64,000 nt of DNA from a virus: positions 1 through 64,000 of IMG/VR virus record IMGVR_UViG_3300032236_001100; one strand, given 5' to 3'. The translations under genes were made by a program, and so were the position numbers. Positions within the stretch are counted from its first letter, which is position 1, and each line of letters opens with the position of its first letter. The notes under the pieces are model-generated. The model was not told the DNA's origin. It ran no database searches and saw nothing but the letters and a program-made list of their open reading frames with translations. This document shows, piece by piece, positions 2,039 through 35,686 of this stretch.

Positions 2039-2097
2039 CCGTTACCACTCCCCTACCCTTACCGCTGACCCGGTCCAACACGAGAGGATAGATAGTG

Positions 2098-2433
2098 ATG
2101 CCATTCATGACGCCCAAATACGATCACGGTGGTTACTATGCGGTCGAGACTACCCACGGCACCGAATGTGTCCCAGCAAGCCTAGTAGGGCTTCACGCGA
2201 CGATTGAAGACCTGATCGACTACACTGAGGGCAACCCTCACGAAGATCAGGATATTGAATTCAAGGCCGGTGTAGGCGTTCGACTGTCCGCACCTGGCTA
2301 TATGGATTGCACTGACTGGTCTTTCTTCGCCACTGAAGATGAGGCCCGCGAGTACGTCAAGGATACCTATGAAGTTGACCCCGATAGCGGTGAAGACCTC
2401 ACTGGCGACGATGAAACTGGCGACAATCAATAA
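2098..2433 (+). CDS. Acidic phage hypothetical protein (RLSAPGYMDCTDW motif)
   Basis: CGAGAGGA RBS at 2081-2088; strongly acidic. Confidence 0.8.
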   Translation: MPFMTPKYDHGGYYAVETTHGTECVPASLVGLHATIEDLIDYTEGNPHEDQDIEFKAGVGVRLSAPGYMDCTDWSFFATEDEAREYVKDTYEVDPDSGEDLTGDDETGDNQ

Positions 2434-2460
2434 AGTTGCCAAAAAGTTGCAACAAAGTTA

Positions 2461-2489
2461 TTGACAATAGTACGTACCGATATTACATT
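2461..2489 (+). promoter_or_regulatory. Sigma70-type early promoter P2
   Basis: TTGACA-17 bp-TACATT. Confidence 0.75.
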
Positions 2490-2543
2490 GTATAAGTCGA
2501 GTGAATGAACGCTCGACTTGACCCAACCCGAGAGGATAGAACG

Positions 2544-2846
2544 ATGGACTTTTTCCGACGATACGAGAACGAACCGGTTTCTACGCTCCTGGCCTTGCCC
2601 TGGAATACGGTCCAGATCGTCATTCCTAAGAACGATGGTAGCAAAATCTGCTACGGTGAAGAGCTTGCACCCGCTGATGCAACCAAAGAAGTCCTGGCTT
2701 ATTGGGTTGCCTATGCGAAAGAAAGAAACCTTGATATCGAGCTTTACTTCAACGCCTGTAAATGTCTTCTGTCAGACGGGCTGACGGTCAAGATCAACGA
2801 AGACCTGATCGTGACCCGTTGCGTAGAAGCGTGTCTGGGCGGTTAA
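2544..2846 (+). CDS. Hypothetical protein
   Basis: CGAGAGGA RBS at 2529-2536 places the start at ATG 2544. Confidence 0.75.
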   Translation: MDFFRRYENEPVSTLLALPWNTVQIVIPKNDGSKICYGEELAPADATKEVLAYWVAYAKERNLDIELYFNACKCLLSDGLTVKINEDLIVTRCVEACLGG

Positions 2847-2864
2847 TTTTCAAACTGCAACCCG

Positions 2865-2893
2865 TTGACAATTACTGTCCTACTTGTTAGAAT
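2865..2893 (+). promoter_or_regulatory. Sigma70-type early promoter P3
   Basis: TTGACA-17 bp-TAGAAT. Confidence 0.8.
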
Positions 2894-2968
2894 GTAATTC
2901 TAATCAACGTGGTAGCAAGTTCTGACCGGCTTGCTATCACCTTATTCTCAACCGAGAGGAATATGCTT

Positions 2969-3811
2969 ATGTGTGTGATCATCGACCGTCCCGCTGGTGT
3001 AGTTGTTACCAAGTCTATGGTTGAAGCCGCGACTACCCGCAATAGTGATGGCTGGGGTATTGCCATCACCCGCAAAGATGGCGTTATTGAGGTCGTTCGC
3101 GGTTTCGGTAGCAAAAAAGCGTTCAAGGCCGTTAAGAACGCTGGTGAATGCCCGTTCGTTTTTCACGCTCGACTGGCAACACACGGTGTTATCAACGTCG
3201 ATAACTGTCACCCGTTCACGATTCTTGACGGCCAGTATGTGGTGATTCACAACGGCATCGTTGATGCTGTCCCAGAAGTCTGGACAGAGTACAGTGATAC
3301 CGCCCACCTTGCCTACGGCATCATTGAGCCTATGCTCAACATGCACCCCGAGTGGTTCGACGATGGAACACTTGCCAAGTTCGTTGATGCCCTGGCTGGC
3401 TACTCCAAGATCGTGATTATCCGCGCTTCTGACGGCAAGCACTGCTGGGTTAACCGTCACTTGGGTGAAGACTATGACGGCCTCTGGATTTCTAACCGCA
3501 CTTGCGTTCCGGTAGTCGCCACGGTCGCCAGGATTGTTGACAAAGTACCCTCTGGCAAGAAAGCGACTAAGGGAACCGCTAAGAAGTCCGTTTCCTCTTC
3601 GTCACTTTGGGGCGACTGGGACTTCATGACTGAAGCCGAAAACGATGATCGTTGGTCCCCTGAACCAGTCGGAGACTACACCACGGTCAACCAGCGCGGA
3701 CTCTGGCAGATGAACGATCTTGCATATTGCACATATCACGATATTGTCGATCTGTGCAAGAATGATCCCGAGGGTATGGCGTCACTGATTCACGACTATC
3801 TCGATAACTGA
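2969..3811 (+). CDS. Class II glutamine amidotransferase (Ntn-hydrolase)
   Basis: Starts M-C-V-I-I (N-terminal Cys); NSDGWG, FHARLATHG, NCHPF, HNGI and SDT motifs; RBS at 2953-2960. Confidence 0.9.
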   Translation: MCVIIDRPAGVVVTKSMVEAATTRNSDGWGIAITRKDGVIEVVRGFGSKKAFKAVKNAGECPFVFHARLATHGVINVDNCHPFTILDGQYVVIHNGIVDAVPEVWTEYSDTAHLAYGIIEPMLNMHPEWFDDGTLAKFVDALAGYSKIVIIRASDGKHCWVNRHLGEDYDGLWISNRTCVPVVATVARIVDKVPSGKKATKGTAKKSVSSSSLWGDWDFMTEAENDDRWSPEPVGDYTTVNQRGLWQMNDLAYCTYHDIVDLCKNDPEGMASLIHDYLDN

Positions 3812-3892
3812 GGAACGCTGGCGGCTTAACTTTCGTCACGAGTCAGTCTGACCGCTGATTCGTGGCCTTTACCTAACCGAGAGGATAGAACG

Positions 3893-4342
3893 ATGGCTGA
3901 TTGCAAGATCATTGCACGGGGCATGCTTGGAGACCATCAGATTGAAGCCCCTGTGGTCAATCCAGGTGGGTGGTTCGGCCAAACGTGGCTGATTGAAATC
4001 GGTGGTTCATACTGGCCTAGCTACTTCTGTGTTGAGGCCGATACGCTTAGTGATGCCATTGATGAGTTTAGTGATTCACAGTATGGCCACCTGATTCATA
4101 TCAATGAATCGGACCTTGCAGACTACGGCATCGACACGGACGAACCTACGTGTTACTTCGCTGGCAACGATGGCAAGCCGTCTGACCTTACTAACATGGC
4201 TATCCACGGCATTGAGGGACGTAGGGGACGCAAGCCCTGGAATTGTCGCTACTTCGCCACTGAGGGTAAGCGTTGGCCACGATCTGGGGTTGACCCCTTG
4301 CGGGTTGACGTAGTGGTTGCCTTGACTGAGGAAAAAAGTTGA
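3893..4342 (+). CDS. Hypothetical protein
   Basis: CGAGAGGA RBS at 3878-3885. Confidence 0.8.
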   Translation: MADCKIIARGMLGDHQIEAPVVNPGGWFGQTWLIEIGGSYWPSYFCVEADTLSDAIDEFSDSQYGHLIHINESDLADYGIDTDEPTCYFAGNDGKPSDLTNMAIHGIEGRRGRKPWNCRYFATEGKRWPRSGVDPLRVDVVVALTEEKS

Positions 4343-4352
4343 CGGCAACCTA

Positions 4353-4381
4353 TTGACAACAATACGTACCCGTGGTACATT
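4353..4381 (+). promoter_or_regulatory. Sigma70-type early promoter P4 with adjacent operator-like palindrome GTTGACGGCAAC (4338-4349)
   Basis: TTGACA-17 bp-TACATT. Confidence 0.75.
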
Positions 4382-4429
4382 ATGTAAGTCGAGTGAATAA
4401 ACGACCTGAAACACGAGAGGATATCAAGG

Positions 4430-5125
4430 ATGCCCAAGTCAATCGAGATTAAGGTTTACACGCTGGCCGAACTGAAGTCGATGGCTGACGCCAAAGATGC
4501 AAGCAAGGCCCAGCGCAAGGCTTACGAGAAAGCACTTGAATGGGTGCGAGAGGGTCAAGCCGATGGCAATTACTGGCACGAAGAAATCATTGCAGACTGG
4601 ACTTACAACCTGAAGCGAATCGGCTTCACCGCCCCCAGAATTTTCTTCAGTGGTTTCGGTAGCCAGGGTGACGGGGCTTGCTTCACTTGCAACTCCATCG
4701 ACTTCGAGAAACTGGCCGTTGCCATCGCGGAAGCAAAAAGCAACCTGATGCCTGATCGTAGTGACGTGACTGAGTTTCTCTTGACCATTCGCAACTATAA
4801 GCCGTTCGTGTCCCGGCTTGCCAAATTGTGTGACGGTGGCTTCATTGAGATGGCAATCGAGCGCGGCACGTCACGTTACTGTCACGAGAAAACGGTAGAA
4901 TTGACCGTTGACGCTCATGAGTCGAGCAATACCCGCAAGACCGCCTTCAAGACTCGCCTTGAAGAGTTCAAGCAAGACCTTGACTGGTTTCGCGTCAGAC
5001 TGTGCCGCGCAATCTACCGTGACCTTGAAAGTTCCTACGACTACCTCATGAGCGACGAAGCATGCATTGGTATGGCTGAGGCCAACGATTACACGTTCAC
5101 CGAGTACGGTATGAGACTAGGCTAA
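4430..5125 (+). CDS. Conserved phage/plasmid early protein (FSGFxSQGDGA motif)
   Basis: VYTLAEL...FSGFGSQGDGACF...ANDYTFTEYG pattern; RBS at 4414-4421. Confidence 0.75.
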   Translation: MPKSIEIKVYTLAELKSMADAKDASKAQRKAYEKALEWVREGQADGNYWHEEIIADWTYNLKRIGFTAPRIFFSGFGSQGDGACFTCNSIDFEKLAVAIAEAKSNLMPDRSDVTEFLLTIRNYKPFVSRLAKLCDGGFIEMAIERGTSRYCHEKTVELTVDAHESSNTRKTAFKTRLEEFKQDLDWFRVRLCRAIYRDLESSYDYLMSDEACIGMAEANDYTFTEYGMRLG

Positions 5126-5219
5126 CGCCCATACCGCACCCGCAACCACTTACCCCGCTTCGTGATTTTTTGAGTTTCTTTACACTGCTCTGACCGGCAT
5201 TACCCGAGAGGATTGACCG

Positions 5220-5936
5220 ATGATGAATCTGCCTAAGATCGAAGACTTGTCTGGCGACACGATTGATAGCAAGCCCGTTGAATTCGATTTCAGCACGGGC
5301 TACGGTGAAACGTGGGATATCGTCCAAGAATACCCGGAAGACTGGACCGCTGAGGATTGCAAGCGGTTCCTTGACGATAATGGCCGCGACTATGACAGTG
5401 AGCTGACCCGCTACTTCCACGACCTTGAAGCCCTCATGCCTGATGATGCTACTGAGGAACTTGAATCGTCCGACACGCCTGAAGGTCTTATCAAGGCCCT
5501 TGACGCCAGGCTGATCGACCATACTGACGAAGATAGCAAGCACTGCACCGAGCTTCGCTACCTGGCTTCAGAAGTGCTGTCTAACAGCGACTACAACTTC
5601 CCAGTCATGAACTATATCTACCCGCTGCCAAGCGGTGACGCCGATAGGATTAGGGGCAAAGTCAACAATCTTGTTAGTACGACCTTGATTCACCGCCTGG
5701 ATACCGATACTTACGGACTGGCCTTAACTGGCGGCGGGATGGACTTCTCAATCGAAATCTGCAAGTCGTTCATCGCCCTTGGCTATATGCCGCCAGTCCA
5801 CTTCTGTGACCTGCCCCGTATGTCCGGGTTCCCGTCAAGCCGTTTCGACCGCTTGGTGATTGAGGCGTGCAAGGAATCGTGCCGTATCGCTATCAAGCGT
5901 ATCGGCTTCACTATCTACCGCCTAGAATCGTTCTGA
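5220..5936 (+). CDS. Acidic hypothetical protein (LALTGGGMD motif)
   Basis: RBS at 5205-5212; 238-aa ORF. Confidence 0.8.
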   Translation: MMNLPKIEDLSGDTIDSKPVEFDFSTGYGETWDIVQEYPEDWTAEDCKRFLDDNGRDYDSELTRYFHDLEALMPDDATEELESSDTPEGLIKALDARLIDHTDEDSKHCTELRYLASEVLSNSDYNFPVMNYIYPLPSGDADRIRGKVNNLVSTTLIHRLDTDTYGLALTGGGMDFSIEICKSFIALGYMPPVHFCDLPRMSGFPSSRFDRLVIEACKESCRIAIKRIGFTIYRLESF

Positions 5937-5989
5937 CCTAACCCTCTTATGTATCACCCCCCAGCCATAGATTTTTGGGAGCCAATACG

Positions 5990-6262
5990 ATGGATGCCAG
6001 CAAGCTACTGAATTCGGCCACTGCCGCCGCTGATGGCACGTATGTTCTGTATGCACCTCGCGCTAATCGCGCGGTCCTCATGGTGGCCAAAAACAACCGA
6101 GTCGCTATGGTGGCCGTTGTCGATGAAAGTTCCTATTACGGTTGGGCCGTTACTCGCGTTACTGGTTCCGAAGCGGAGCTAGTAGCTTCGACGGTCTTCT
6201 GTCAGCCATCTGGCCAACCAAGCGGAGTCGATCTTGCCAAAGTTGACGTGTTCAAGTTCTGA
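5990..6262 (+). CDS. Hypothetical protein
   Basis: GGAG upstream of ATG 5990; fills the gap between two junction motifs. Confidence 0.65.
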   Translation: MDASKLLNSATAAADGTYVLYAPRANRAVLMVAKNNRVAMVAVVDESSYYGWAVTRVTGSEAELVASTVFCQPSGQPSGVDLAKVDVFKF

Positions 6263-6340
6263 GTTAATTTCGGCAAGCAAACTGATTCTAAACCCGGCGT
6301 TTCCGGTACTGACCCCCGGACACGATTTTTGAGACTGAGC

Positions 6341-6358
6341 TGTCTCCGCGCGGAGACA
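6341..6358. repeat. Perfect palindrome TGTCTCCGCGCGGAGACA (copy 1 of 5)
   Basis: Same 16-bp core at 19343, 33130, 40780 and 55686. Confidence 0.9.
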
Positions 6359-6380
6359 AACAACCGAGAGGATATTGATC

Positions 6381-6836
6381 ATGCCTATCACTCGCAACGG
6401 CTTAGAACTTCACTGTTACGCGCCAGGTGACGGTGCCCTATCTTTTAGCTGGGTTGACATTAGAGAGGGAAACGTAGTCCCTGGAAAGGTAACGCCATCA
6501 CTTGCGCGTAGATTCCTGAAAAGTCGTGACGGACTGGGACGCCGCGACTATCACGTTGTGACAGTCAACGGTGAAGTCAGACTTGCACCACCTGTTAGGC
6601 GTGTCTGTGACGACGTGGTTCGTGTTAAATGGCATATGTCAACGCTATGCAAAAATTACGCAGACGTTCGTATCGAAGTCACTGGTGGGCCTGGCCCAGT
6701 CACGTTCTACCAGCTTAAAGCATGGACTATTGACGAGGATGGAACCAAAGTCGATTTCAAGCATATCTCTAGTTTGATGGCCATCGTTTTCTTTCTGAAC
6801 CACCAGCAACTCTACAAGGAACTGGGCCTGGCATAA
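6381..6836 (+). CDS. Hypothetical protein flanked by an exact 19-bp direct repeat
   Basis: RBS at 6365-6372; ACCCCCGGACACGATTTTT at 6312-6330 and 6856-6874. Confidence 0.75.
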   Translation: MPITRNGLELHCYAPGDGALSFSWVDIREGNVVPGKVTPSLARRFLKSRDGLGRRDYHVVTVNGEVRLAPPVRRVCDDVVRVKWHMSTLCKNYADVRIEVTGGPGPVTFYQLKAWTIDEDGTKVDFKHISSLMAIVFFLNHQQLYKELGLA

Positions 6837-6927
6837 AGCTCTAGCTACGCGAAACACCCCCGGACACGATTTTTCGAGATTGACTAAGCCGCTGACCCGG
6901 CCATTCCCAAACGAGAGGACCACGATC

Positions 6928-7338
6928 ATGACAGACACGATTCTTGAAGCGGTACTTGATTCCTATATCGAGTGCGCATTATGGACTACCACCGACGAAT
7001 CAGACGAACGTGGCGGCAACCCGCTTGACGATAACTATGGGCCGTCTGATCTTTCCCCAGAAGCCCTGGAAGCGATGCGCAAGGATTGTGCCAGGTTCCT
7101 CAGAGACAATAAGGTGATCCTTGAGACTTTTGACGAACTTTACCCTAACTGGTTCACCAAGTACTCGACTGAAGAAATGATCGGCCACGACTTCTGGCTG
7201 ACCCGCAACGGTCACGGAGCTGGCTTCTGGGACGGCGGCTGGCCCGGTATTACCGGCGATATTCTCACCCGGTCGTGCAAGGCGTTTGGCGAGTGCAACC
7301 TGTACGTGGGTGACGATAGCAAGATTTATGTTTGCTAA
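6928..7338 (+). CDS. Conserved phage hypothetical protein (GHDFWLTRNGHGAGFWD motif)
   Basis: RBS at 6912-6919; motif recognised from phage hypothetical proteins. Confidence 0.8.
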   Translation: MTDTILEAVLDSYIECALWTTTDESDERGGNPLDDNYGPSDLSPEALEAMRKDCARFLRDNKVILETFDELYPNWFTKYSTEEMIGHDFWLTRNGHGAGFWDGGWPGITGDILTRSCKAFGECNLYVGDDSKIYVC

Positions 7339-7411
7339 TATCGGCAGCGACTCAATAACCCCACCGCAAGATTTTTTAATCCGGGTTCACACAATACGAA
7401 AGGATACGACG

Positions 7412-7714
7412 ATGGCAAGAGTTAAGAAAGTCAAGCCGCTGAAAATGCCGGTAGCACTCAAAAACGCATTGTACAATGCGTCCAAAAATTGCACTGGAAG
7501 CATTGCGAGTGGCTGCAAGCATAGCATCGAAAGAAACCAAGCATACGGTCGAGGCATCATCGTTGGTTGCGTTAGCGCGTTAATGGCAACCGGCATGACG
7601 TTTGATGAAGCCTGGCTGTTCATTGGCGGCAATATCCCTACCGACTATGACGAGGCATGCGTCCCCGATACATGGCCGCTTCGCCAGCTTTCAAAGTCTC
7701 AACCCTCTCAGTGA
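7412..7714 (+). CDS. Hypothetical protein
   Basis: CGAAAGGA RBS at 7397-7404. Confidence 0.7.
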   Translation: MARVKKVKPLKMPVALKNALYNASKNCTGSIASGCKHSIERNQAYGRGIIVGCVSALMATGMTFDEAWLFIGGNIPTDYDEACVPDTWPLRQLSKSQPSQ

Positions 7715-7774
7715 TTTTTGGGAATCACTGTCGCCCGTTCCTGAACCGTTCGCCAGCAATCAAGGAAAATCACA

Positions 7775-8197
7775 ATGGCCTTCAAGTCGCCACGACTCAA
7801 AGATCGTAACGCATCCATTCCAGAAATTCTCGACCGCCTCTTTTCCGGCAAGCGAGTCGATGAAGTCACACTCCGAAACGCTAAAGCCGAGTACGACAAG
7901 CTCAAATTGATCAAGTCGGCTAAGACCACCAAGCCACTGACCGGTGAGGAACGCCAGCGTAGGGCGCGAGGCCGTCCAAAAAACTCCGAGCCAATGGCAC
8001 GCTTCAACATGAAGCTAACGCAATCCGAGCTGACGGCCTGGAATGATGCGTGCGATATATTGAAATACGAGTCGCTTTCCGCTATGGTCCGGTTCGCGGT
8101 GAACGGCCTCGTGAATAACGTGATCGAAACCAAGCATAATGTAATGCCACTCAATCAAGAAAACACCGGCCAGCAACCAACCACCCCCGCCCCATGA
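7775..8197 (+). CDS. Ribbon-helix-helix DNA-binding protein with RGRP hook
   Basis: RGRP...RFNMKL...W......SLSAMVRFAV, a beta-strand/helix/helix pattern. Confidence 0.7.
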   Translation: MAFKSPRLKDRNASIPEILDRLFSGKRVDEVTLRNAKAEYDKLKLIKSAKTTKPLTGEERQRRARGRPKNSEPMARFNMKLTQSELTAWNDACDILKYESLSAMVRFAVNGLVNNVIETKHNVMPLNQENTGQQPTTPAP

Positions 8198-8478
8198 TTT
8201 CCCAGATTAAAATTCGAGGTCGAACCTACCGCTTGGAAAAGATCAGCAGTAGGTTTATCCTCTCTTACGGCGAACGGTCCCACCGGGTTGATCAAGACGA
8301 CAACCAATGGTGCGGTTGGATATGCGATTGCGAGGACTTCGCCTACCGCCGCGAGGGCAATAAAGCTGACCCCTGCAAGCATATCTTAGCTTTGCACAAT
8401 CAGGGCTTCACAGTTCTGTCAGACAGATATCTCTTTCAGCCAGCCGATTCACAAGACACGAAAGGGCCGATAAAATGA
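8194..8478 (+). CDS. SWIM zinc-finger protein
   Basis: CDC-x13-CKH motif. Confidence 0.75.
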   Translation: MISQIKIRGRTYRLEKISSRFILSYGERSHRVDQDDNQWCGWICDCEDFAYRREGNKADPCKHILALHNQGFTVLSDRYLFQPADSQDTKGPIK

Positions 8479-9179
8479 CCGTTGCATCCATCGCACCGGA
8501 ACCATTGCTGAAAACGACCACAACCGCCATGACGCCGATCACCCAAGTGATAGAGCGTGTCCTCATGCGAGACACGCCAACCGATCACGAAGTCGAATCT
8601 GCCTGCAAAGAATTCAAGGCAATCGCACCGTTCGCTGTCCCAGACGGCAAGCTGGAAAAGCTGATCTCTTCATTGTCCAACGAAGATGAGTTCCCCAGCG
8701 ACTCGTTGGCCTCGCAAGCCCTACGCGAGTACGAGCAAGCCGTGATCCAGCGATACCTCGTAACGACCGGCAAGTCGTTCAAGCCGCCCCGCAAGGCCAA
8801 AGAAGCCGACCATAAGCCCAAACGGCCACGAGGCCGTCCCAGGCTTGACAAAGATATGAAAAATCTGCACTTTCGAGTCGAGACAAAACGCCTCGAAGCC
8901 TGGAAAGAAGTCAGTCGCAAGCTCGGTTTCAATAGCGTTTCCGCGATGGTTCGTCACGCTATGAACGGCTTAGTCGAATCTGGTCTGGTGATCTCAGAAG
9001 ACGAGCTTCACGAGGAACGTCAGCACCATGAAGACGTTATGACAGGCGCGTCTGTCAGGATCACCATAGGCGAATTAAAGTCATGGGAAGATTACTGTCA
9101 ACAATACGGCAACCGAATAGTTGCGGCTATCATCAGGATTGCCGCCGAACGCCTTACTCGGCCATTCGGAGATATGTAA
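8475..9179 (+). CDS. Tandem ribbon-helix-helix protein, paralogue of 7775-8197
   Basis: RGRP...LHFRV...W......SVSAMVRHAMNGLV plus a second RHH-like unit at the C-terminus. Confidence 0.7.
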   Translation: MTVASIAPEPLLKTTTTAMTPITQVIERVLMRDTPTDHEVESACKEFKAIAPFAVPDGKLEKLISSLSNEDEFPSDSLASQALREYEQAVIQRYLVTTGKSFKPPRKAKEADHKPKRPRGRPRLDKDMKNLHFRVETKRLEAWKEVSRKLGFNSVSAMVRHAMNGLVESGLVISEDELHEERQHHEDVMTGASVRITIGELKSWEDYCQQYGNRIVAAIIRIAAERLTRPFGDM

Positions 9180-9223
9180 AATCCAGAGAAAAAATGCAAT
9201 CAGAAAATAATTCCGGTTGCCAA

Positions 9224-9252
9224 TTGATTTTGTGTGCTACGTTTCGTATATT
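9224..9252 (+). promoter_or_regulatory. Sigma70-type promoter P5
   Basis: TTGATT-17 bp-TATATT. Confidence 0.55.
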
Positions 9253-9316
9253 AGATCTTGTCGAGAGCAAACACTGACCTGAACGCCTTCGACTCTAAAC
9301 CCGAGAGGAACATGAG

Positions 9317-10051
9317 ATGCAGAAATATGTGCCCTACGTCCGTGTGAGCAGCAAACGCCAGGGTGACAGCGGCCTGGGCCTGGAAGCTCAGGTCGAGGCC
9401 GTTAAGAAGTACGCTGAATCCAAGTCTGGTGAGATTGTCCGTGACCCGTTTGTCGAGGTCGAGACAGGCACCAAAGATCGTGTCGTGCTTCGTACTGCCC
9501 TGGCTTATGCACGTCGAACCAAGTCTACACTTGTGGTCGCCAAGCTCGACCGTATCGCCCGTGATATGAAGCTGTTCTGTGAGATCCGCGACTCTGGCAC
9601 CAACGTGGTCTTTCTTGACCTGCCAGACGTGCCGCCAGGCCCCGTTGGTCAGATCATGCTCACGATGCTTGCTGCATTCGCTGAGTTTGAAGCTAAGGTG
9701 ATTCAGGAGCGAACCAGAGCTGCGCTCGGAGTCCTCAAGAAACGTGGTGTTAAGCTCGGTGCCGCCCGTGAGGGTGCGCCTCGTCTCACTGACTCTGATC
9801 GTGCCGCTGGTCGCAAGGCCGCATCTGAGGCCATCTCTAATAAGGCTGTCAAGCGCAACGCTGACATTCTGCCGGTTGTCCTCGGTCTGCGTGAGGACGG
9901 CATGCCACTGAGTGAGATCGGTGAGTTCCTGGCTGAAAACTACGGTTCCCTCACTGCAAGCGGCCAGCCATTCGACGCTAGCCGTGTAGCCAAGCTGGTG
10001 CGAATGGCTAAGAAGGCGGGCGTCAAGCCAGCCATGCCGGTGCTTGCCTAA
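9317..10051 (+). CDS. Serine recombinase (resolvase/invertase family)
   Basis: YVRVS catalytic motif, LVVAKLDRIARD, AEFE..I.ERT..AL, GVKLG and a C-terminal HTH. Confidence 0.93.
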   Translation: MQKYVPYVRVSSKRQGDSGLGLEAQVEAVKKYAESKSGEIVRDPFVEVETGTKDRVVLRTALAYARRTKSTLVVAKLDRIARDMKLFCEIRDSGTNVVFLDLPDVPPGPVGQIMLTMLAAFAEFEAKVIQERTRAALGVLKKRGVKLGAAREGAPRLTDSDRAAGRKAASEAISNKAVKRNADILPVVLGLREDGMPLSEIGEFLAENYGSLTASGQPFDASRVAKLVRMAKKAGVKPAMPVLA

Positions 10052-10157
10052 TACGGAATGCAAGCCGCCTCAAATTATGTGGCGGCTCACTTTTAACCCC
10101 GCTCAAGATTTTTTGAATCGCCCTGCCCTGACCGGCAGCAACCGAGAGGATAATATC

Positions 10158-10583
10158 ATGACTCTGAAAGAATGGTCCGAGCTATCGCAGATTCACGCTA
10201 CGTCACCGAACGAACGTGGCAACGTATCTTTGACGATTAGCCCTACTCACTTTCACCATCGGTCGCTGTATCACCTGGATGACTACTACGTCGATTTCAT
10301 GAACGGGCCAGTTGTATGGATGAAACCCAAACTAAAAGCCGAGATCACTGTGTGGGCACCGCTTGATCACGCCACAATGCAAACGCCTCTGATCGGTCGT
10401 TGGGAAATCATGGTTGCTGGCCCATGCGATGCCGAGGCCGTAGCCAGAACGCTCATGCGAGATAAAGGTGGACATTCTGCATACTATGTCATGCCGGATC
10501 ACTGGAACCAAAACATCCGATCCAACTGGCTAACAAGCAACGGCTGGCTTTCTGGCCTTCGCGCCATACCACCCACCCAGTGA
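10158..10583 (+). CDS. Hypothetical protein
   Basis: RBS at 10143-10150. Confidence 0.75.
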   Translation: MTLKEWSELSQIHATSPNERGNVSLTISPTHFHHRSLYHLDDYYVDFMNGPVVWMKPKLKAEITVWAPLDHATMQTPLIGRWEIMVAGPCDAEAVARTLMRDKGGHSAYYVMPDHWNQNIRSNWLTSNGWLSGLRAIPPTQ

Positions 10584-10612
10584 TTTTCCCAACCCACAAC
10601 GAGGCCCAACCC

Positions 10613-11056
10613 ATGATTGCTCAGACCCGAATCCTGCCCGACTTCAACGCAATACGATCCATAGCCGAGGAGATCGGCTCAGACCTCGCTCACGAGATTC
10701 TGGAGCGTGACCTGTACGTTTCCTGGCCGGGACTCGACCAGGCCAACAGCGAGCCTCTGACGGCCCTGGGGCTCAAGCCCACCGATCCTGAGTGGTTCGA
10801 GGCCGAGAGGCTTGCCGCCAGGATGTTCACGGCTGGCCTGCTGATCTTGGATATCCAGGCTGAACTAGACAGGCTGGGTTGGAGCAGGACCACCGGCAAC
10901 CCCGATGGTCTGGCGGTTGTGCCACTCAGTCACGGCAAGGTGCAGGTTCTTGGCCTGCAAGACCAGGCGACACAAGACGCCAGGATCTTGCTCTCCAGGC
11001 TCAAGGCCGTCCGTACCGGCGTGCCCTACTCAATCACGTTCATCACCGGACTCTAA
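10613..11056 (+). CDS. Hypothetical two-domain protein (GLKP..W domain + ELDRLGW domain)
   Basis: Shares segments with the next two genes and with 33168-33668. Confidence 0.75.
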   Translation: MIAQTRILPDFNAIRSIAEEIGSDLAHEILERDLYVSWPGLDQANSEPLTALGLKPTDPEWFEAERLAARMFTAGLLILDIQAELDRLGWSRTTGNPDGLAVVPLSHGKVQVLGLQDQATQDARILLSRLKAVRTGVPYSITFITGL

Positions 11057-11110
11057 CAAGACCCCCCCCGACGTAATTTTTTGAAGTCGATTTACCAAGG
11101 AGATTTGACA

Positions 11111-11881
11111 ATGGCCAGCAGCAAGATGATCAAAGCAATCGAAGCGGAACTTGAGCGGCTTGACTGGAACGGGTCCGAGACCAACGTGTCCGGGTTCGTT
11201 ATCACCGACTACGAAGAAATGGTAGGCACATTGCCACCAAACTTCGTCGTGCTGTACGACGATCACATCCGGTTCGTTGATGATGCTGACAAGATCCTGA
11301 ACGCACTCAAGGCAGCATCGCCCGACGACGAATATGGGACCGGCCTGGACGATATCCAGCAGGATTCGGACTACCTAGCCGCTCGTCGCCAGGAACTCGT
11401 GCAGATCCTGGGGGTTATCACAACGAAGGACCATGCCGGTGTTCACTTCACCACGAACTACACCAGAGACGTACTGGAGAGCCTGGAGTGGGTTGGATGG
11501 ATCAAGATTCATAAGCCAGTCCACGAGGCCACTGGCCTGGAGTACAGCGAGGAGAACTGGTCCCTGGAAGTCACGCCCGAAGGCCAGAAGGTCGTGGACG
11601 ATGAGTACCAGGAACCCAAAGAAGAGGACGAGCGTATCTCGCTTTGCATCGACAACGGCCCTGGCGGTTACGTTGTGTCGAATCCCGACAGCATTCCGCG
11701 CCAGATCATTCACGTCATGTCACCCGATGGGCCTATGATCACGGGAAGTACCGACAGCCACTCGGTCGTGGCCGAATGTTGGGAAGCTATTAACGGACTC
11801 ACGGGCTGGAAGAGCGAAGACGAAGTCACGGTCGATCATGATCGCCAGACGATCTTCGTGTCCGGTCGCAAGCTGTCCTGA
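11111..11881 (+). CDS. Acidic hypothetical protein with N-terminal ELxRLxW domain
   Basis: AGGAG RBS; paralogous N-terminus. Confidence 0.8.
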   Translation: MASSKMIKAIEAELERLDWNGSETNVSGFVITDYEEMVGTLPPNFVVLYDDHIRFVDDADKILNALKAASPDDEYGTGLDDIQQDSDYLAARRQELVQILGVITTKDHAGVHFTTNYTRDVLESLEWVGWIKIHKPVHEATGLEYSEENWSLEVTPEGQKVVDDEYQEPKEEDERISLCIDNGPGGYVVSNPDSIPRQIIHVMSPDGPMITGSTDSHSVVAECWEAINGLTGWKSEDEVTVDHDRQTIFVSGRKLS

Positions 11882-11965
11882 GCTAACACGGGAGCCTGGT
11901 CTGAACAGGCTCCATACCCCCCCCTTCGGGATTTTTTGGGATCAAAACAGCACGGAGAATTTACG

Positions 11966-12472
11966 TTGAACGCATGTCTTGCAGCGATCAAGTCTGAACT
12001 CGACCGCTTAGGTTGGTCTCGCTCTGAGTCCAACCCCTCTGGATTCGTTGTGACCGACGAGGTTGACCTTGGGGCCACGGCTAACGGTATCACCTATAGC
12101 CACCCAGGAGACCTTCGATGGGTCCACGTTTACAACGACAGAATGGACAGATACGGCCACGCAGAACATATTCTGAGGATCTTGAAAGAACTTTCCGAAT
12201 ATGAGCATGTATTCGATTTCATCTCAGCGACAGCACCCCAAAGCCCAGCCAGGATTGGCAAGGCTTTGGGCTTCACGCTGGCAGAAATCAGGATGCGAAG
12301 CCTCATCAAGAACCGGCCAACCTTGGATCAAATGCTTCACGACTGCGAATGCAAGCATTTGATTCGCTTTGGGCTCAAGCCGGGAACACGAGCCTGGGAA
12401 GTCTTTGAGTCTTCAGCAAGACAAGCATTCGAGACAAGTGTGGCTCAACAAAATGAGGAGCAACGCCAATGA
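11966..12472 (+). CDS. Hypothetical two-domain protein (ELDRLGW domain + GLKP..W domain)
   Basis: GGAG upstream of TTG 11966; paralogous segments. Confidence 0.7.
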   Translation: MNACLAAIKSELDRLGWSRSESNPSGFVVTDEVDLGATANGITYSHPGDLRWVHVYNDRMDRYGHAEHILRILKELSEYEHVFDFISATAPQSPARIGKALGFTLAEIRMRSLIKNRPTLDQMLHDCECKHLIRFGLKPGTRAWEVFESSARQAFETSVAQQNEEQRQ

Positions 12473-12714
12473 TATGGACTCCAGCTTCGCAGCCGCCTCC
12501 ACTGCACAAAGATGAGAACCTGCTTGATACGCTGACATCGGACGATGTTTTGGCTGTAGACAAGTGGGGAAAAATTTTTGTCGCCTACATGCAGTCGGAC
12601 GAATATTACGGGACTCGCTGGCGAACAACATGCTCCGAAGGATGGATTCTGAATGAAGGAACTGTCACACACTGGATGCCACTACCACCCTTGCCAGAAA
12701 AGGACAAACCATGA
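12469..12714 (+). CDS. DUF551-like protein
   Basis: SDDVL...VTHWMPLP. Confidence 0.8.
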   Translation: MIWTPASQPPPLHKDENLLDTLTSDDVLAVDKWGKIFVAYMQSDEYYGTRWRTTCSEGWILNEGTVTHWMPLPPLPEKDKP

Positions 12715-13160
12715 ACTGGACCCCAGCCCTGATCTTGCCATCACTAAGCGAAGCCATAGGCCACCCTCGCGTGCTGGTCTCGGACGATGTGCTTGCAATC
12801 AACAATCAGCGAGAACAGTTCGTCGCATTTGTTGAGAAGAGAGAGGGCTTGGACCCACGGTGGATGTCAGGCAGGCGCGAGCTTGGCGACATCGAATACT
12901 GGATGCCCTTGCCTGCGGCACCAGACGCAGAGAAGCAAGAGCCGATGGGCAGCGTATACGTCGAACACGTTCACGTTACACAGGAGCAATTCAGCAAAGA
13001 GCCAGCTGTCTACTTTGACAAGATCGGCATCGACGGATCGACCGTGACCGTCCACAACGAAGATGGCGTCATCGGCCACCTCATTCCAGACTGGATGCTT
13101 CGCCAGATCGTGCGAGAAAATCTGGGCTTGCCTCGCAAGAACTCCGATATGTTAGTGTAA
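12711..13160 (+). CDS. DUF551-like protein with C-terminal extension
   Basis: SDDVL...IEYWMPLP; tandem paralogue of the previous gene. Confidence 0.75.
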   Translation: MNWTPALILPSLSEAIGHPRVLVSDDVLAINNQREQFVAFVEKREGLDPRWMSGRRELGDIEYWMPLPAAPDAEKQEPMGSVYVEHVHVTQEQFSKEPAVYFDKIGIDGSTVTVHNEDGVIGHLIPDWMLRQIVRENLGLPRKNSDMLV

Positions 13161-13211
13161 GGTTGACATCAACTATGCCGCTGACCCGGCACTAACCGAG
13201 AGGATTGCAGG

Positions 13212-30751: not shown

Positions 30752-30785
30752 GTTGCCGTTAACTTGACATCAACATTGTGGCAAC
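30752..30785. promoter_or_regulatory. Operator cluster of the divergent immunity switch
   Basis: GTTGCCGTTAAC (30752-63), CTTGACATCAAC (30763-74) and a GGCAAC half-site. Confidence 0.65.
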
Positions 30786-30832
30786 GATTTGGCATCGTGT
30801 CAAGCTGACCCACAAACTGAGAGGAGAGTCCG

Positions 30833-31303
30833 ATGGCATTCGGTGAAGAAAACGACTATATGACGGCTTATCGCAACCGAATCCGCGAGGTTGCTCGGGC
30901 CTATGTCGAAAACAAAAAAATGAAACAGGTAGACTTTGCGGATGTCACCGGCCTGGGCAAGGAACGGATCTCCGCGATCCTGGGCGACCGGCCAACCTTC
31001 ACGATCTCGATCTACGTGCTTGAGCATCTGGCCAAGGGCATGGGGACGACCATTGACTGGCTGATCAGTGGACGCTCAATCTACCCGCCACCGAAGACAT
31101 CAGATAAGGGTGGCGACTTGACTGAACAAGAAGCGGAACTGATCCTTTTGGCCAAAGCTGTCTCCAGTAACGATCCCGAACCGTCACGGTTAATGACGGC
31201 TCGGAATCGAATCCTGGGATTGACAAGTCCGGTTCTCGGCCAGGTGGCTCTTCAGGAACCTGAGAAGACACGCAACGGAGGAACTGGGCGAAAATCGTCC
31301 TGA
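30833..31303 (+). CDS. XRE-family (CI-like) repressor
   Basis: KQVDFADVTGLGKERISAIL...LAKGMGTTIDWL. Confidence 0.85.
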   Translation: MAFGEENDYMTAYRNRIREVARAYVENKKMKQVDFADVTGLGKERISAILGDRPTFTISIYVLEHLAKGMGTTIDWLISGRSIYPPPKTSDKGGDLTEQEAELILLAKAVSSNDPEPSRLMTARNRILGLTSPVLGQVALQEPEKTRNGGTGRKSS

Positions 31304-31857: not shown

Positions 31858-32949
31858 ATGCCTCGGCTTACTAAAGGGAAAGTTCCCCTCTTACGGCAGC
31901 ATTCGAGTGGCCAGTGGACCGTCAGGCTGTCAGGTTTCGACCATTACCTTGGGCACGACAAGGAAGCCGCTCAGACGAAGTACGGCGAACTGATCGGCCA
32001 GTGGGAGTCACGGGGACGCAAGCCAGTCTTTGAGACCAAGACTGACGGCAAGACCGTGTCCGAGGTCGCTGACCTCTACCTGGAGCATTGCCGGTCCTAT
32101 TACGTGAAGCGTGGCAAGGTCACGTCTCAGGTCAAGAACATTGAGCAGGCCCTGGCGGGAATGGTCGAACTGTACGGCAGTGCCCAGATCGACAGCTTTG
32201 GGCCACGCGACATGATTAACGTCATTAACCACTGGATCGAATCAGGAATCGTGCGCAGGTCAGTTAATGACAGGCATCGGATCATTGCCCAGTTCTTCCG
32301 CTGGTGCGGAGTCTGGGGCTACTTGCCGGTGGACGCATGGATGAGAGTCAAGGTCGTCGAGAGCCAGAAGGAGGGCCGCTCTAAGGCCCCCGACCTGCCG
32401 GAGCGCGAGCCGCCTCGGTTGGAGCATGTCCGTGCCGTCCAAGAGATCGTCTGCGACCGGGTCTCGGACATGATCGAACTCCAGATGATCACCGGCATGC
32501 GGTCCTGTGAGATCTGTGCCATGCGACCGCTGGACATCGACATGTCGGGTGAAATCTGGGTCTACACCGTCAGACCGGAATTCAACAAGACGACACACAA
32601 AAAAAAGAAACGGGTGGTGATGCTTGGCTCCAAATGCCAGGAGATACTGAAAAAGTACATCGCCATCCGCAAGCCCGACCAGGAGGTGTTTCGGACCCAG
32701 TACAATGGACCTTACACTCCACCGAATTATCGGGGCGTGATCCGGTTCTCGTGCATCAAGCTCGGGATACCCATCTGGTTTCCCCACCTGCTGCGTCATC
32801 ATGCCGCCACGGAGATTCGGGCCAAGTACGGCCTTGACGCTGCCAGGGCCATCCTGGGCCACTCAGACGTGTTCACCACCATGAACTATGCCAAGCCCAG
32901 CCCTGACGCTGAACTGACCAAGAGGGTGGTGAAAGACCGCGAAGGTTGA
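31858..32949 (+). CDS. int: Tyrosine integrase
   Basis: TGMR, K, HLLRH, LGH and Y catalytic set; N-terminal H.SGQ..V.L.G.DHYLG as in planctomycete integrases; AGGAG RBS. Confidence 0.95.
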   Translation: MPRLTKGKVPLLRQHSSGQWTVRLSGFDHYLGHDKEAAQTKYGELIGQWESRGRKPVFETKTDGKTVSEVADLYLEHCRSYYVKRGKVTSQVKNIEQALAGMVELYGSAQIDSFGPRDMINVINHWIESGIVRRSVNDRHRIIAQFFRWCGVWGYLPVDAWMRVKVVESQKEGRSKAPDLPEREPPRLEHVRAVQEIVCDRVSDMIELQMITGMRSCEICAMRPLDIDMSGEIWVYTVRPEFNKTTHKKKKRVVMLGSKCQEILKKYIAIRKPDQEVFRTQYNGPYTPPNYRGVIRFSCIKLGIPIWFPHLLRHHAATEIRAKYGLDAARAILGHSDVFTTMNYAKPSPDAELTKRVVKDREG

Positions 32950-32974
32950 CGGTTCAGCCAGATGCTTCTATCAT
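32946..32974 (+). promoter_or_regulatory. Sigma70-type promoter of the candidate sRNA
   Basis: TTGACG-17 bp-TATCAT. Confidence 0.65.
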
Positions 32975-32980
32975 TGATGT

Positions 32981-33104
32981 GAAGCGATTGCTCTTGATCG
33001 GAAGAGTCAATCGCACCGAAGCATGGCTCTCGCGTGCGTCGTCCTCTTGTGGGTTTGGGTCAATAAGAGCCATCTGGTGAAAACCGGGTGGCTCTTATTG
33101 TTTG
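32981..33104 (+). ncRNA. Candidate structured small RNA antisense to the conserved gene leaders
   Basis: Own promoter, two hairpins and a terminal hairpin at 33061-33100; linker 33042-33063 is complementary to TGACC...GAGAGGA leaders. Confidence 0.5.
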
Positions 33105-33668: not shown

Positions 33669-33686
33669 CTGGTCGCTGACCGCCAG

Positions 33687-33989
33687 TCAAAACTCTTCTC
33701 TTGACTCGACCTTGCATCTTGGCTCAAGCGATAAGCTGACCTTGCGAACGCCAACGATCTTGTCGCCCACCCACAAGGTGAAAGTCAGAGGCCACTCACG
33801 CAATAATGTGGTCGGGCGGCTTGACCTGTAGAAATCAGCAGCGATCTCTTCTGCTGCGTAGTCGATGCTCTGGGGATCGTTGATGTCGATGCCGCTCAGG
33901 CAAACATAGCGTCTTGCTGAGATGTTCCTATCCAGCTCCTTGACCCCGTAGATCACAGGGCATGGAAGCATCTCCTTGGGTATATCCAC
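33687..33989 (-). CDS. Hypothetical protein
   Basis: ORF in a minus-strand operon. Confidence 0.6.
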   Translation of the reverse strand: MDIPKEMLPCPVIYGVKELDRNISARRYVCLSGIDINDPQSIDYAAEEIAADFYRSSRPTTLLREWPLTFTLWVGDKIVGVRKVSLSLEPRCKVESREEF

Positions 33990-33992
33990 GAG

Positions 33993-34514
33993 TCATTCCT
34001 TCTCTGGTTGTTCAGTCAGCCGGTCGTAAGCTGATTTCCACATGCGAACCCTGGCGACAGCCTCAAGCAGATCGGTCGTACCGAGAGCTTCTTCGATCTC
34101 CTGAGCGAACCGCACACGAGATGGCCGATGGTCAGCCATCTCATCAGTGGGTGCCACTTCAATGCGTGGCTCTTGGCTTTGAATAAAAGGATCGTCAAAC
34201 GAACGTCCTGAACCACCTTCAGGATGGTCCGTGTAGCACAGTACTTGTCTTGTTGCCTGATGCATGTCCCAGGCCACCCAGGCGTGAGAATGCATTTTGG
34301 TATGGCTGTTGTGTCCAGCTAACTCGGAGAACCTTCTACCAATCGCTCGCAACTCTTCATTCATCTGATGCTTAGCATCGCCCTTGATCTGAGTGTTGTC
34401 GATAGCATCTTCGAGAGCGATGGCGAACTGACCCATGTGCGAACGAGCCAACGTGTGCAAGGCCGCGCTGATCACGCCTAGCTGAGTTTTGTTGCAGATG
34501 ATCTTGTAGTTCAC
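33993..34514 (-). CDS. Hypothetical protein
   Basis: ORF in a minus-strand operon. Confidence 0.65.
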   Translation of the reverse strand: MNYKIICNKTQLGVISAALHTLARSHMGQFAIALEDAIDNTQIKGDAKHQMNEELRAIGRRFSELAGHNSHTKMHSHAWVAWDMHQATRQVLCYTDHPEGGSGRSFDDPFIQSQEPRIEVAPTDEMADHRPSRVRFAQEIEEALGTTDLLEAVARVRMWKSAYDRLTEQPEKE

Positions 34515-34523
34515 GTTTATGCC

Positions 34524-34736
34524 TTATAGCCAGGGGCCATTATGATGCACCACAGGATCTCGCCCGTAATGGTCTTCCAAGCCTGGTTCATAGTCGTAAT
34601 GCGTGGGCTTGCCCATCTCACTGGCACTACGAGCAAGCAACCAGCCAAGGCCGATCAAGCCCAAGCCAGAGACTAACGCAAGCAAAGCTGTTAACGCCGA
34701 GATCTGAGTATCGCTCAATCCAATGTAGCCTGGCAT
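34524..34736 (-). CDS. Small membrane protein
   Basis: One TM helix; AAGGAG RBS. Confidence 0.6.
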   Translation of the reverse strand: MPGYIGLSDTQISALTALLALVSGLGLIGLGWLLARSASEMGKPTHYDYEPGLEDHYGRDPVVHHNGPWL

Positions 34737-35023
34737 GCTGTCTCCTTGTTAATGGCTTCGCTCAACTTGGACACTACGCTTGCTGGTAGTCTGGGGCCTT
34801 CAAATTTGATGATGTGCTGCACCGCTTCTTGAAGCTGATTGAGTTCAGCGCGGAGTCGCGTAACCTCTTCATGCCGGTCAATGGCGGCATCGGCCACTTT
34901 GGAGCGACCTGCGTCGATAGAAACAATGCCTTGCAGCAAGCTAAGAAAGCTCTCGCGGTCTAAAGAAAAGTTCGTGCCTTTTGGTGTTTCTTGAACTGTT
35001 GCAATCGTGTCTTGGAGATTCAC
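34715..35023 (-). CDS. Coiled-coil hypothetical protein
   Basis: AAGGAG RBS. Confidence 0.6.
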   Translation of the reverse strand: MNLQDTIATVQETPKGTNFSLDRESFLSLLQGIVSIDAGRSKVADAAIDRHEEVTRLRAELNQLQEAVQHIIKFEGPRLPASVVSKLSEAINKETACQATLD

Positions 35024-35079
35024 TCTCTCGCTCCTTGCGGGGGCGGTTGCAGTCCCGCCCGTCCGAGGTTTTAGTTAAC

Positions 35080-35589
35080 TCAGGCTGTCGGCTGATGAGG
35101 GTTAATACTCACCGACACGTTGCTGCCACTGCCAGAGATGCCCAGGTAGCCCGTGCCGTTAATGGAAGCAAATTCGTTTGTCCCGCCCGTTGTGTTGTAA
35201 TGCCATCCTGAAGATTCTGTCCATTCAGGCGCATAAGCCGCTTTACCAAAAATCCATCCGGCGTCGGTCTGGATCGAAAACGTCGCACTCTTGCCGGTGA
35301 CGTTCAAGTAAATGGTGGAGTCGGGATGCGAGGCACCAAACACAGTGACTGTGCCCTTCGCCGTGATCAGGGTGGAGTCGCCGTCCACAAATGACGTGCC
35401 AGACATCGAGCCTTTGACGATGTCGCCGGTCCCCCAAAACTTTGTCCACTGATGTGGAGGAGTCTGGACAGCACTATGATGCACATGAGCAGCAACCGGC
35501 TTGTGATGGGCCACCGGACCATGTCCCAGTGCGCTCAAGCTGACGATTGAATCAAGACTCTCGACTGCGGGAGAAAAAGAACGTCGCAT
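35080..35589 (-). CDS. Exported protein with Planctomycete extracellular (LEPR-XLL-like) N-terminal motif
   Basis: MRRSFSPAVESLDSIVSLS; CGAGAGGA RBS and CUGACC hairpin upstream. Confidence 0.7.
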   Translation of the reverse strand: MRRSFSPAVESLDSIVSLSALGHGPVAHHKPVAAHVHHSAVQTPPHQWTKFWGTGDIVKGSMSGTSFVDGDSTLITAKGTVTVFGASHPDSTIYLNVTGKSATFSIQTDAGWIFGKAAYAPEWTESSGWHYNTTGGTNEFASINGTGYLGISGSGSNVSVSINPHQPTA

Positions 35590-35686
35590 TGGTAAATTCC
35601 TCTCGATAGGGTGATTGGTCAGAATCATCAGATTTGCATGGATGCAGGCGGCTTCGTCTGCCGCCGCATTAAAGATCAGCTAGCGA

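Follow-up and report, generated by a model that had tools for sequence, protein, structure and literature searches.

The 64-kb window analyzed here comprises positions 1 to 64,000 of the IMG/VR record IMGVR_UViG_3300032236_001100, a single genome of an uncultivated virus with 84,755 bp (84.8 kb). The proteins of the record include a terminase small subunit, a large terminase with an intein, an SU10-type capsid protein, and a replication and recombination set (Erf-like annealing protein, helicase, and sliding clamp). Further Pfam matches were obtained to Sigma70_r2/r4, RNA_ligase, Thy1 (ThyX), and dUTPase, and the lysogeny-type genes code for a helix-turn-helix repressor-like protein and a tyrosine integrase. 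Judging from this gene content (terminases, capsid, repressor-like protein, and integrase), the record is a temperate tailed phage. A conserved 595-aa protein of the virion block (portal-like) has distant relatives with 35–43% identity in metagenome-assembled genomes (MAGs) of Planctomycetota, and hence the host probably belongs to this phylum. The plus strand between ∼1.5 and 14.3 kb carries ∼24 small, mostly acidic ORFans (orphan open reading frames, ORFs), whose products mostly lack a PHROG or Pfam match, and the block reads like a host-takeover or early region. In this block, the leaders of ten genes contain an RNA hairpin with the loop CUGACC (CTGACC in DNA) ahead of a shared ribosome-binding site (RBS), and an eleventh copy lies elsewhere in the window. 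These hairpins form a real, statistically solid, lineage-restricted family within a repeated leader cassette.

All 11 hairpins of the sequence-only reading were found at the positions it had given, ten on the plus strand (2061–13944) and one on the minus strand (35612–35627), each in the sense of the following gene. In nine of them, CTGACC is directly flanked by stems of 4–13 bp, counting G-U as a pair (loops at 2065, 2922, 3848, 5190, 6892, 10128, 13181, and 13928 on the plus strand and at 35622 on the minus strand); the other two (6302–6320 and 9260–9293) are bulged or offset. The layout of the module is a hairpin, a C/A-rich linker free of G (69 nt in total, with 0 G, 21 A, 32 C, and 16 T), the sequence (A)AC(C)GAGAGGA, 5–10 nt, and the start codon (Table 1). 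The exact sequence CGAGAGGA occurs 13 times on the plus strand between 1600 and 13981, 5–10 nt before an ATG, and follows the hairpins; the copy at 6309 is separated from its CGAGAGGA at 6365 by a second motif and a palindrome. The distance from the 3′ edge of the hairpin to the start codon is 19–28 nt in ten copies and 48 nt in the 13917–13944 block. The hairpins thus always stand in the 5′ leader, in the gene sense and before a shared extended RBS, as had been proposed. The GAGAGGA element can pair over 7 bp (one G-U) with the 3′-terminal UCCUUUC of Planctomycetota 16S rRNA. The leader of the repressor-like gene, where CTGACC with little stem had been noted, indeed has a stem of 1 bp only.

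Table 1. CUGACC modules, related leaders, and other repeated elements (window coordinates unless marked otherwise; loops in brackets).
Feature	Position	Strand	Description
Module	2061–2100	+	ACCG[CTGACC]CGGT 2061–2074; linker CCAACAC; GAGAGGA from 2082; ATG 2098 (GTG 2095); −2.7 kcal/mol
Module	2909–2971	+	13-bp hairpin 2909–2940, 3 G-U; linker CTTATTCTCAACC; GAGAGGA from 2954; ATG 2969; promoter-like TTGACA-N17-TAGAAT immediately 5′; stem −16.8 (sense) vs. −9.6 (antisense) kcal/mol
Module	3835–3895	+	13-bp hairpin 3835–3866, 3 G-U; linker CTTTACCTAACC; GAGAGGA from 3879; ATG 3893; stem −18.9 (sense) vs. −11.5 (antisense) kcal/mol
Module	5186–5222	+	TGCT[CTGACC]GGCA 5186–5199; linker TTACCC; GAGAGGA from 5206; ATG 5220; CCCC-N7-GATTTTTTGA motif 5′
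Atypical copy	6302–6383	+	5-bp stem TCCGG/CCGGA 6302–6320, 9-nt loop TACTGACCC containing CTGACC; overlaps CCCCC..GATTTTTGA motif; then palindrome hairpin GTCTCCGCGCGGAGAC; GAGAGGA from 6366; ATG 6381
Module	6888–6930	+	GCCG[CTGACC]CGGC 6888–6901; linker CATTCCCAAAC; GAGAGGA from 6913; ATG 6928 (phrog_1915 gene)
Module, interrupted stem	9260–9319	+	9260–9293, 6+2+2 bp, 1 G-U, 2 A-C; linker TCTAAACCC; GAGAGGA from 9303; ATG 9317 (serine recombinase); promoter-like TTGATT-N17-TATATT ends 7 nt 5′ of stem
Module	10123–10160	+	CTGCC[CTGACC]GGCAG 10123–10138; linker CAACC; GAGAGGA from 10144; ATG 10158; terminator-like hairpin and CCCC..GATTTTTTGA motif on 5′ side
Module	13176–13214	+	TGCCG[CTGACC]CGGCA 13176–13191; linker CTAACC; GAGAGGA from 13198; ATG 13212 (small lipoprotein-like gene)
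Conserved block	13912–13995	+	11–12-bp hairpin GCCCGGCAGGT[CTGACC]ACCTGCCGGGC 13917–13944; second hairpin CAGGCT-ACG-AGCCTG; GAAACCGAGAGGA; ATG 13993
Module	35587–35627	−	TGATT[CTGACC]AATCA 35612–35627; linker CCCTATC; GAGAGGA; ATG at 35589; −0.7 kcal/mol
Repressor leader	30805–30835	+	CTGACC with 1-bp stem only; CACAAAC; TGAGAGGA; ATG 30833; not conserved in the collinear relative
Related leader, other loop	1563–1618	+	Same RBS (ACACGAGAGGA) 3′ of promoter-proximal hairpin with TTGATGAAC-type loop; sister leaders 2493–2546, 4385–4432
Related leader, other loop	23734–23790	−	9-bp hairpin, loop UACCCAA; C/A-rich linker; CGAGAGGA; before gene starting 23725; outside the early block
Candidate small RNA gene	32946–33104	+	Sigma-70-like promoter TTGACG-N17-TATCAT; 5′ hairpin; loop GCUCUCG; linker UCCUCUUGUGGGUUUGGGUCAA; strong terminator
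CCCC(C)-N5–7-GATTTTTTGA motif	211, 278, 5153, 5959, 6314, 6858, 7359, 10097, 11066, 11921	+	
Palindrome GTCTCCGCGCGGAGAC	6341, 19342, 33129, 40779, 55685; genome 76891, 80430, 80763		

An invariant CUGACC loop on covarying stems had been claimed from the letters alone, and both shuffling and covariation tests agreed with it. The 84.8-kb genome contains ten CTGACC loops with stems of at least 4 bp, against a mean of one and a maximum of six in 200 dinucleotide shuffles, so such hairpins are not equally frequent in shuffled controls. Among 66 unrelated IMG/VR matches to CTGACC-N4–34-AACCGAGAGGA, only one has a stem of at least 4 bp. Across 12 aligned copies, 81.7% of the stem cells are paired, compared with 41.3% after shuffling, and none of 500 shuffles reached the observed value; cells with double changes numbered 28 against 8.4 in the shuffles, and the true register scored 0.96 while slid controls scored 0.03–0.19. 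Common descent has not inflated these counts, the copies being paralogues whose stems are unrelated to one another. All six loop positions are invariant in 14 copies, 11 in this genome and three in its relative described below. The G-U pairs, taken earlier as a pointer to RNA structure, outnumber A-C mismatches in the stems by 9:2, an excess that favors structure at the RNA level, and both 13-bp stems are ∼7 kcal/mol more stable in the sense than in the antisense orientation.

The position of the hairpin within the intergenic region showed which gene it belongs to. Wherever a sigma-70-like promoter (intergenic regions starting 2847 and 9180) or the CCCC-N5–7-GATTTTTTGA motif (those starting 5126, 6837, and 10052) is present, it comes after the stop codon of the upstream gene and before the hairpin, which always abuts the RBS side; the hairpin is therefore to be assigned to the 5′ leader of the gene that follows rather than to the 3′ end of the one before. 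The linkers 3′ of the hairpins are C/A-rich and no U-run was found there, and the energies of five stems are only −0.7 to −5.5 kcal/mol, so the hairpins are neither terminators nor good nuclease barriers; an intrinsic terminator, a G+C-rich hairpin with a U-run directly after it, was rejected on these grounds, none of the five stems reaching −6 kcal/mol. The weak stems are compatible with a site stabilized by protein. The idea that the hairpin opens the RBS was likewise rejected since the predicted RBS accessibility of module leaders (0.39) was no better than that of other genes (0.44, p = 0.74). A search for a cis pseudoknot within −150 to +200 nt revealed no consistent complement of the loop. 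Pairing of the loop with 16S rRNA was also discarded because in the MAG 16S genes GGUCAG occurs only within a helix near position 1131 and gives no hint of being accessible. A covariance model of the hairpin alone detected no further convincing copy in this genome or its relative, the best extra match (16 bits) having no clean stem.

One collinear sequenced relative was found, the IMG/VR contig 3300032242_002717 (87.4 kb, hereafter G001), which is reversed and shares 65–72% identity in conserved genes. It carries exactly three CTGACC hairpins, each with AAACCGAGAGGA, at places equivalent to those of the present phage. At the serine recombinase gene of G001, the stem is unrelated to that at 9260–9293 and the loop is identical, as would not be expected from descent alone, which would not keep loops better than stems. 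The G001 orthologue of the 13212 gene keeps the module with the stem GCCG/CGGC. The third is an 83-nt block (13912–13989) with 89% identity between the two genomes while the flanking genes are not conserved; its CUGACC stem is identical in G001, and its second hairpin changes from CAGGCU/AGCCUG to CAGGCG/CGCCUG, a compensatory U-A to G-C replacement. In G001, the block is followed by ATG-TGA, with no orthologous ORF. A CTGACC at 1484 that lies outside any hairpin, the sole such copy with readable variation, is mutated in a ∼90%-identical contig. A 92-kb near-relative contig encodes a 95%-identical terminase small subunit.

Beyond these genomes, nothing comparable was encountered in the collections searched. 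A megablast of 1500–14500 against the phage database gave no match, and Rfam 15 returned none at the gathering threshold for the whole window or at E ≤ 1 for 1400–14400, in agreement with the earlier failure to match a described element; the element matches no described RNA family. The IMG/VR scan for CTGACC-N4–34-AACCGAGAGGA yielded 67 stretches, of which only G001 was genuine, and the 20-mer of the 13928 hairpin was found in IMG/VR in G001 only; a match of this 20-mer in the metagenome collection (L107), which lies inside high-GC coding DNA, was rejected as chance. The module was not found in four Planctomycetota MAGs with distant prophage relatives, and 401 sampled Planctomycetota genomes gave three single matches against four for the reversed control, i.e., chance level. 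The hairpin family is thus lineage-restricted. The description "genome-wide" given to it was too strong, as all but one of the 11 copies fall within a single early block of 12 kb and no genome other than this phage and one sequenced relative was found to carry the module.

The early block that houses most copies differs in gene order and content between this genome (G000) and G001. A 36.5-kb contig from a run (X2) belonging to the same study as the apparent source run of this DNA, ∼90% identical and collinear over 1400–14400, shows cassette-type replacements, an insertion, and a deletion that end in intergenic motifs (5943/6341, 6853/6858, and 12480/12723), evidence that modular shuffling of the block is ongoing. 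The regions of these events are 2604–2765, 5943–6341, 6853/6858, 12480–12723, and 13828–13905; one of them is an insertion of 314 nt and another a clean deletion of 242 nt that removes the gene at 12469–12714. The repeats could accordingly be viewed as acting in DNA, as recombination substrates or inverted duplications around a fixed site that drive gene shuffling of the kind seen with promoter-early stem-loops (PeSLs, see below), with any RNA role being secondary. The hyperplastic block, the indels ending in intergenic motifs, the gain or loss of the module at orthologous genes, which is apparent from five or more G001 orthologues lacking it, and the GAGAGGATAGAACGATG that the leaders have in common up to the start codon would all fit this explanation. 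The sequences in common are, however, of only 6 and 11 nt, the indel ends that could be seen coincide not with the CUGACC hairpins but with the CCCC..GATTTTT motif and the palindrome, and the G-U bias together with the strict sense orientation points to selection at the RNA level; we consider a primarily DNA-level role very unlikely.

From these observations, we infer that the element acts as RNA, that a reader of it exists, and that expression is affected. Six invariant loop bases on stems without shared sequence point to base-specific reading of the loop, and the explanation tentatively favored is that the loop is recognized sequence-specifically by a trans-acting factor controlling translation or mRNA fate. 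In this reading, the hairpins are stem-loops of the sense-strand RNA and stand at the 5′ side of a repeated leader cassette that ends in AAC(C)GAGAGGA, 5–10 nt, and AUG; the cassette belongs to the rapidly evolving early block of this temperate phage, whose host is probably a member of Planctomycetota. The reader would more likely be a protein (of phage or host) than an RNA, and its binding site, 19–28 nt 5′ of the start codon, would fall at the 5′ edge of the 30S footprint. For these early genes, the bound factor may govern the start of translation, the decay of the mRNA, or both in a co-ordinated way, a logic that can be likened to the iron-responsive element (IRE), RegA, or operator hairpins. 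A more specific form of this proposal, doubtful but conceivable, is a phage-private post-transcriptional regulon without a described homologue, in which a reader of the CUGACC hexaloop acts on some eleven host-takeover gene leaders, perhaps jointly with a conserved small RNA, encoded in the lysogeny module, whose pairing with the shared RBS would direct it against the leaders. If true, a Planctomycetota phage would have a further layer of early-gene control, or of immunity, that operates on RNA. Of the post-transcriptional regulon put forward in the sequence-only reading, the hairpin family stands, and the regulon itself goes a step further, no reader having been found among the proteins surveyed.

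Several observations weigh against recognition of the loop by such a factor. In a Pfam survey of 80 phage proteins, no RNA-binding domain appeared among the 25 of 34 matched families that were listed, nor did one appear in the 10 largest or regulatory proteins, which were scanned separately. No early protein has an arginine-rich N-terminus, and the basic ones among them are ribbon-helix-helix or AT-hook-like by eye; a divergent reader may still be present. The gene at 693–1418 (−), examined as a candidate regulator, was rejected as it encodes the terminase small subunit. The G001 orthologues of genes 2098, 2969, 3893, 5220, and 6928 have no module; in its place stand hairpins of other kinds, the CCCC..GATTTTTTGA motif, or merely an RBS, so the module is dispensable for those genes. 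It is present in only two sequenced genomes, where its copies are paralogues rather than a deep phylogeny, and the interrupted stem at 9260–9293 (loop at 9274) folds better in antisense. In addition, the hairpin-linker-GAGAGGA layout is combined with no fewer than three other loops (at 1563, 2493, 6341, and, on the minus strand, at 23.7 kb), a recurrence that suggests a generic role for the stem. On these grounds, together with the sister leader at 4385, the other loops in the hairpins of orthologous G001 genes, and hairpins that start a few nt from the predicted transcription start (e.g., 9260), the leader could be purely structural, a 5′ stabilizer, an insulator or standby-site boundary, or an intercistronic barrier whose loop has no reader of its own. 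This was judged unlikely, because it leaves the invariance of six loop bases over unrelated stems unexplained, five stems are very weak, and the predicted RBS accessibility is not raised in module leaders.

A candidate loop partner was sought among non-coding RNAs, and apart from one small RNA, none bearing GGUCAG was convincing. The putative gene of this RNA (about 32982–33104) is located between the integrase and the next gene, and a homologous element occupies the same place in G001 (L025:7868–7995 on the minus strand), with the promoter kept and six compensatory pairs in the terminator. The linker UCCUCUUGUGGGUUUGGGUCAA is complementary to (UGACCC)..AACC..CGAGAGGA in this genome, the predicted pairing comprising CGAGAGGA (8 bp with one G-U), AACC(C), and UGACCC through GGGUCA. 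The anti-CGAGAG segments are two, the loop GCUCUCG and the linker UCCUCUUG. GAGAGGA leaders were enriched among the best predicted targets (median ∼−16.7 vs. −10.1 kcal/mol, p = 1.5e-6, for leaders that are not mutually independent). The RNA immunity factors P1 c4 and P4 CI offer an analogy for silencing by a small RNA. The small RNA might similarly pair with AACC-CGAGAGGA and, via GGGUCA, with the loop UGACC(C), thereby silencing the early genes; the conserved gene, promoter, and terminator, the two anti-CGAGAG segments, the enrichment of targets, and complementary segments in the same order as the leader elements are in keeping with this. The loop is nevertheless paired in only four of 15 predicted duplexes, GGUCA is missing from the G001 RNA, the one G001 leader with a CUGACC module that was scored ranked low (−5.4 kcal/mol), and a 5-nt match has a chance of ∼4% of arising anyway, so that silencing of this kind is rather improbable. 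Since G001 retains only CUCUUG (anti-CGAGAG) and not GGUCA, the small RNA is a plausible partner of the shared RBS rather than a reader of the loop, for which it is a weak candidate in this genome only. Likewise, the kissing-loop target suggested earlier holds weakly here, through the GGGUCA of this neighboring RNA, and is not kept in G001.

The boxB element of lambda and P22 has a GNRA-like pentaloop with boxA alongside, occurs at two sites per genome, and is bound by a dedicated arginine-rich N protein. The present element likewise is a small hairpin in phage early transcripts, and in boxB, loop bases are read by a protein. A nascent hairpin could by this analogy load an antitermination factor onto RNA polymerase after each of many early promoters, which would agree with invariant-loop hairpins in early transcripts, with several of them standing 3′ of promoter-like sites, and with terminator-like hairpins in the block (intergenic regions starting 10052 and 13422). 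However, every copy carries the hexamer CUGACC in its loop, which in one G001 copy is 7 nt long, rather than a GNRA-like pentaloop. In contrast to nut sites, the alignments have no conserved columns, boxA-like or other, 5′ of the stem, the conservation lying 3′ in AAC(C)GAGAGGA. No N-like arginine-rich early protein was seen, and each of the 11 sites is tied to an RBS at 5–32 nt, four of them without a nearby promoter. The comparison with boxB and N made earlier therefore fails in the defining features tested, and antitermination of this type has very little probability. A hairpin promoter of the N4 type was rejected too, as there was no RNA polymerase among the listed Pfam families and no DxDGD motif in the predicted proteins; the phage encodes only a sigma-70-family protein, and no RNA polymerase gene was found.

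Hairpin operators are known from several systems, e.g., the MS2 and PP7 coat proteins, T4 gp43, the RegA/RegB early-mRNA regulon of T4, and the eukaryotic IRE with its regulatory protein (IRE-IRP), where the stems vary around a conserved hexaloop. The CUGACC module could have in common with them a loop-specific hairpin close to the RBS, or a class-specific RBS, permitting co-ordinate post-transcriptional control, as a functional analogy only; the loop sequence is unrelated, and no homologous repressor or nuclease was detected. Taken as a whole, the module does not share the tested defining features of PeSL, of the start-associated sequence (SAS) and its extended form (ESAS), or of boxB. Its closest analogues are PeSL at the system level and SAS/ESAS at the motif level. 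The PeSLs of T4-type phages are repeated intergenic cassettes consisting of a stop codon, a promoter, a variable stem-loop with G-T pairs, a Shine-Dalgarno sequence, and a start codon; they are concentrated in hyperplastic early regions 5′ of ORFans and linked to modular shuffling, and their conserved part is a sigma-70 promoter, while the stem-loop acts as a terminator and has no invariant loop (PMC2839356, PMC4122927). The present cassettes are similarly composite, repeated, and placed 5′ of ORFans in a hyperplastic region with shuffling. Unlike in PeSL, the hexaloop and RBS are invariant, no U-run follows the stem, and only two or three copies (2909, 9260, and the recombinase copy of G001) have a sigma-70-like promoter directly 5′ (TTGACA-N17-TAnnnT).

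The SAS of Cluster K mycobacteriophages is a lineage-specific extended RBS motif a few nt before the start codon of 11–19 non-structural genes in one orientation; about half of the sites have an inverted repeat just 5′, and a role in translation is suspected (PMC3203893). In ESAS, the 17-bp arms are conserved in sequence around a variable spacer, and as departures from the arms do not support RNA pairing, its authors favor a DNA-binding protein (PMC3203893). SAS motifs are asymmetric and overlap the RBS 3–8 nt before the start codon; the plus-strand CGAGAGGA motif, 5–10 nt before ATG, shows an analogous pattern but is unrelated in sequence to GGGATAGGAGCCC. In contrast to ESAS, the arms here are unrelated in sequence and covary, and it is the 6-nt center that is invariant. 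Early leader motifs of phages such as PeSL and SAS/ESAS are known but poorly understood, and the invariant hexaloop on covarying stems is the clearest RNA signature among them. If a reader exists, reader and hairpin would define a pair, hairpin-protein or hairpin-RNA, that is compact, portable, and able to control early genes co-ordinately, in a phage from a phylum with almost no characterized phage biology. The module may also mark genes that the phage must switch together and so give a handle on ORFans that cannot otherwise be annotated.

Other repeated motifs accompany the modules. The CCCC(C)-N5–7-GATTTTTTGA motif occurs at about ten early gene junctions, on the plus strand only, and at about 10 still more uniform sites in G001 (CCCCCCTGAACGATTTTTTGAG). 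In three intergenic regions it precedes the CUGACC hairpin, and one copy is interrupted by the insertion in the X2 contig. The motif could be a promoter for some factor or a junction signal. The perfect 16-bp palindrome GTCTCCGCGCGGAGAC has eight copies in this genome and about five in G001, often right after stop codons, and may serve as a terminator or bind a protein.

Strong sigma-70-like early promoters (TTGACA-N17-TAnATT) were located at 1530–1590, 2460–2520, 4352–4410, 2866–2905, and 9226–9260. Their spacers carry palindromes of the ACGTAC type and the first transcribed bases are TAAGTCGAG, a design found also in G001; these promoters are probably repressor-controlled. The palindromic 10-mer TTGACATCAA is present at 13163–13174, just 5′ of the 13176 hairpin, and at 30763–30774 in the repressor leader, and a similar TTGACATC..CTGACC arrangement is seen in G001 (L026:3480–3505); TTGACATCAA may be an operator.

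The large terminase gene (L029:7593–10133 on the minus strand, i.e., genome 71593–74133) contains intein and HINT domains; the Pfam survey matched it to Terminase_6N/6C plus Intein_splicing, and the tblastn match to G001 came in separate pieces. The record opens with five tandem copies of AGGGACTGGCCAGTAAGCC (window 1–95), and the ∼90%-identical X2 contig begins within ∼80 nt of the same starting point.

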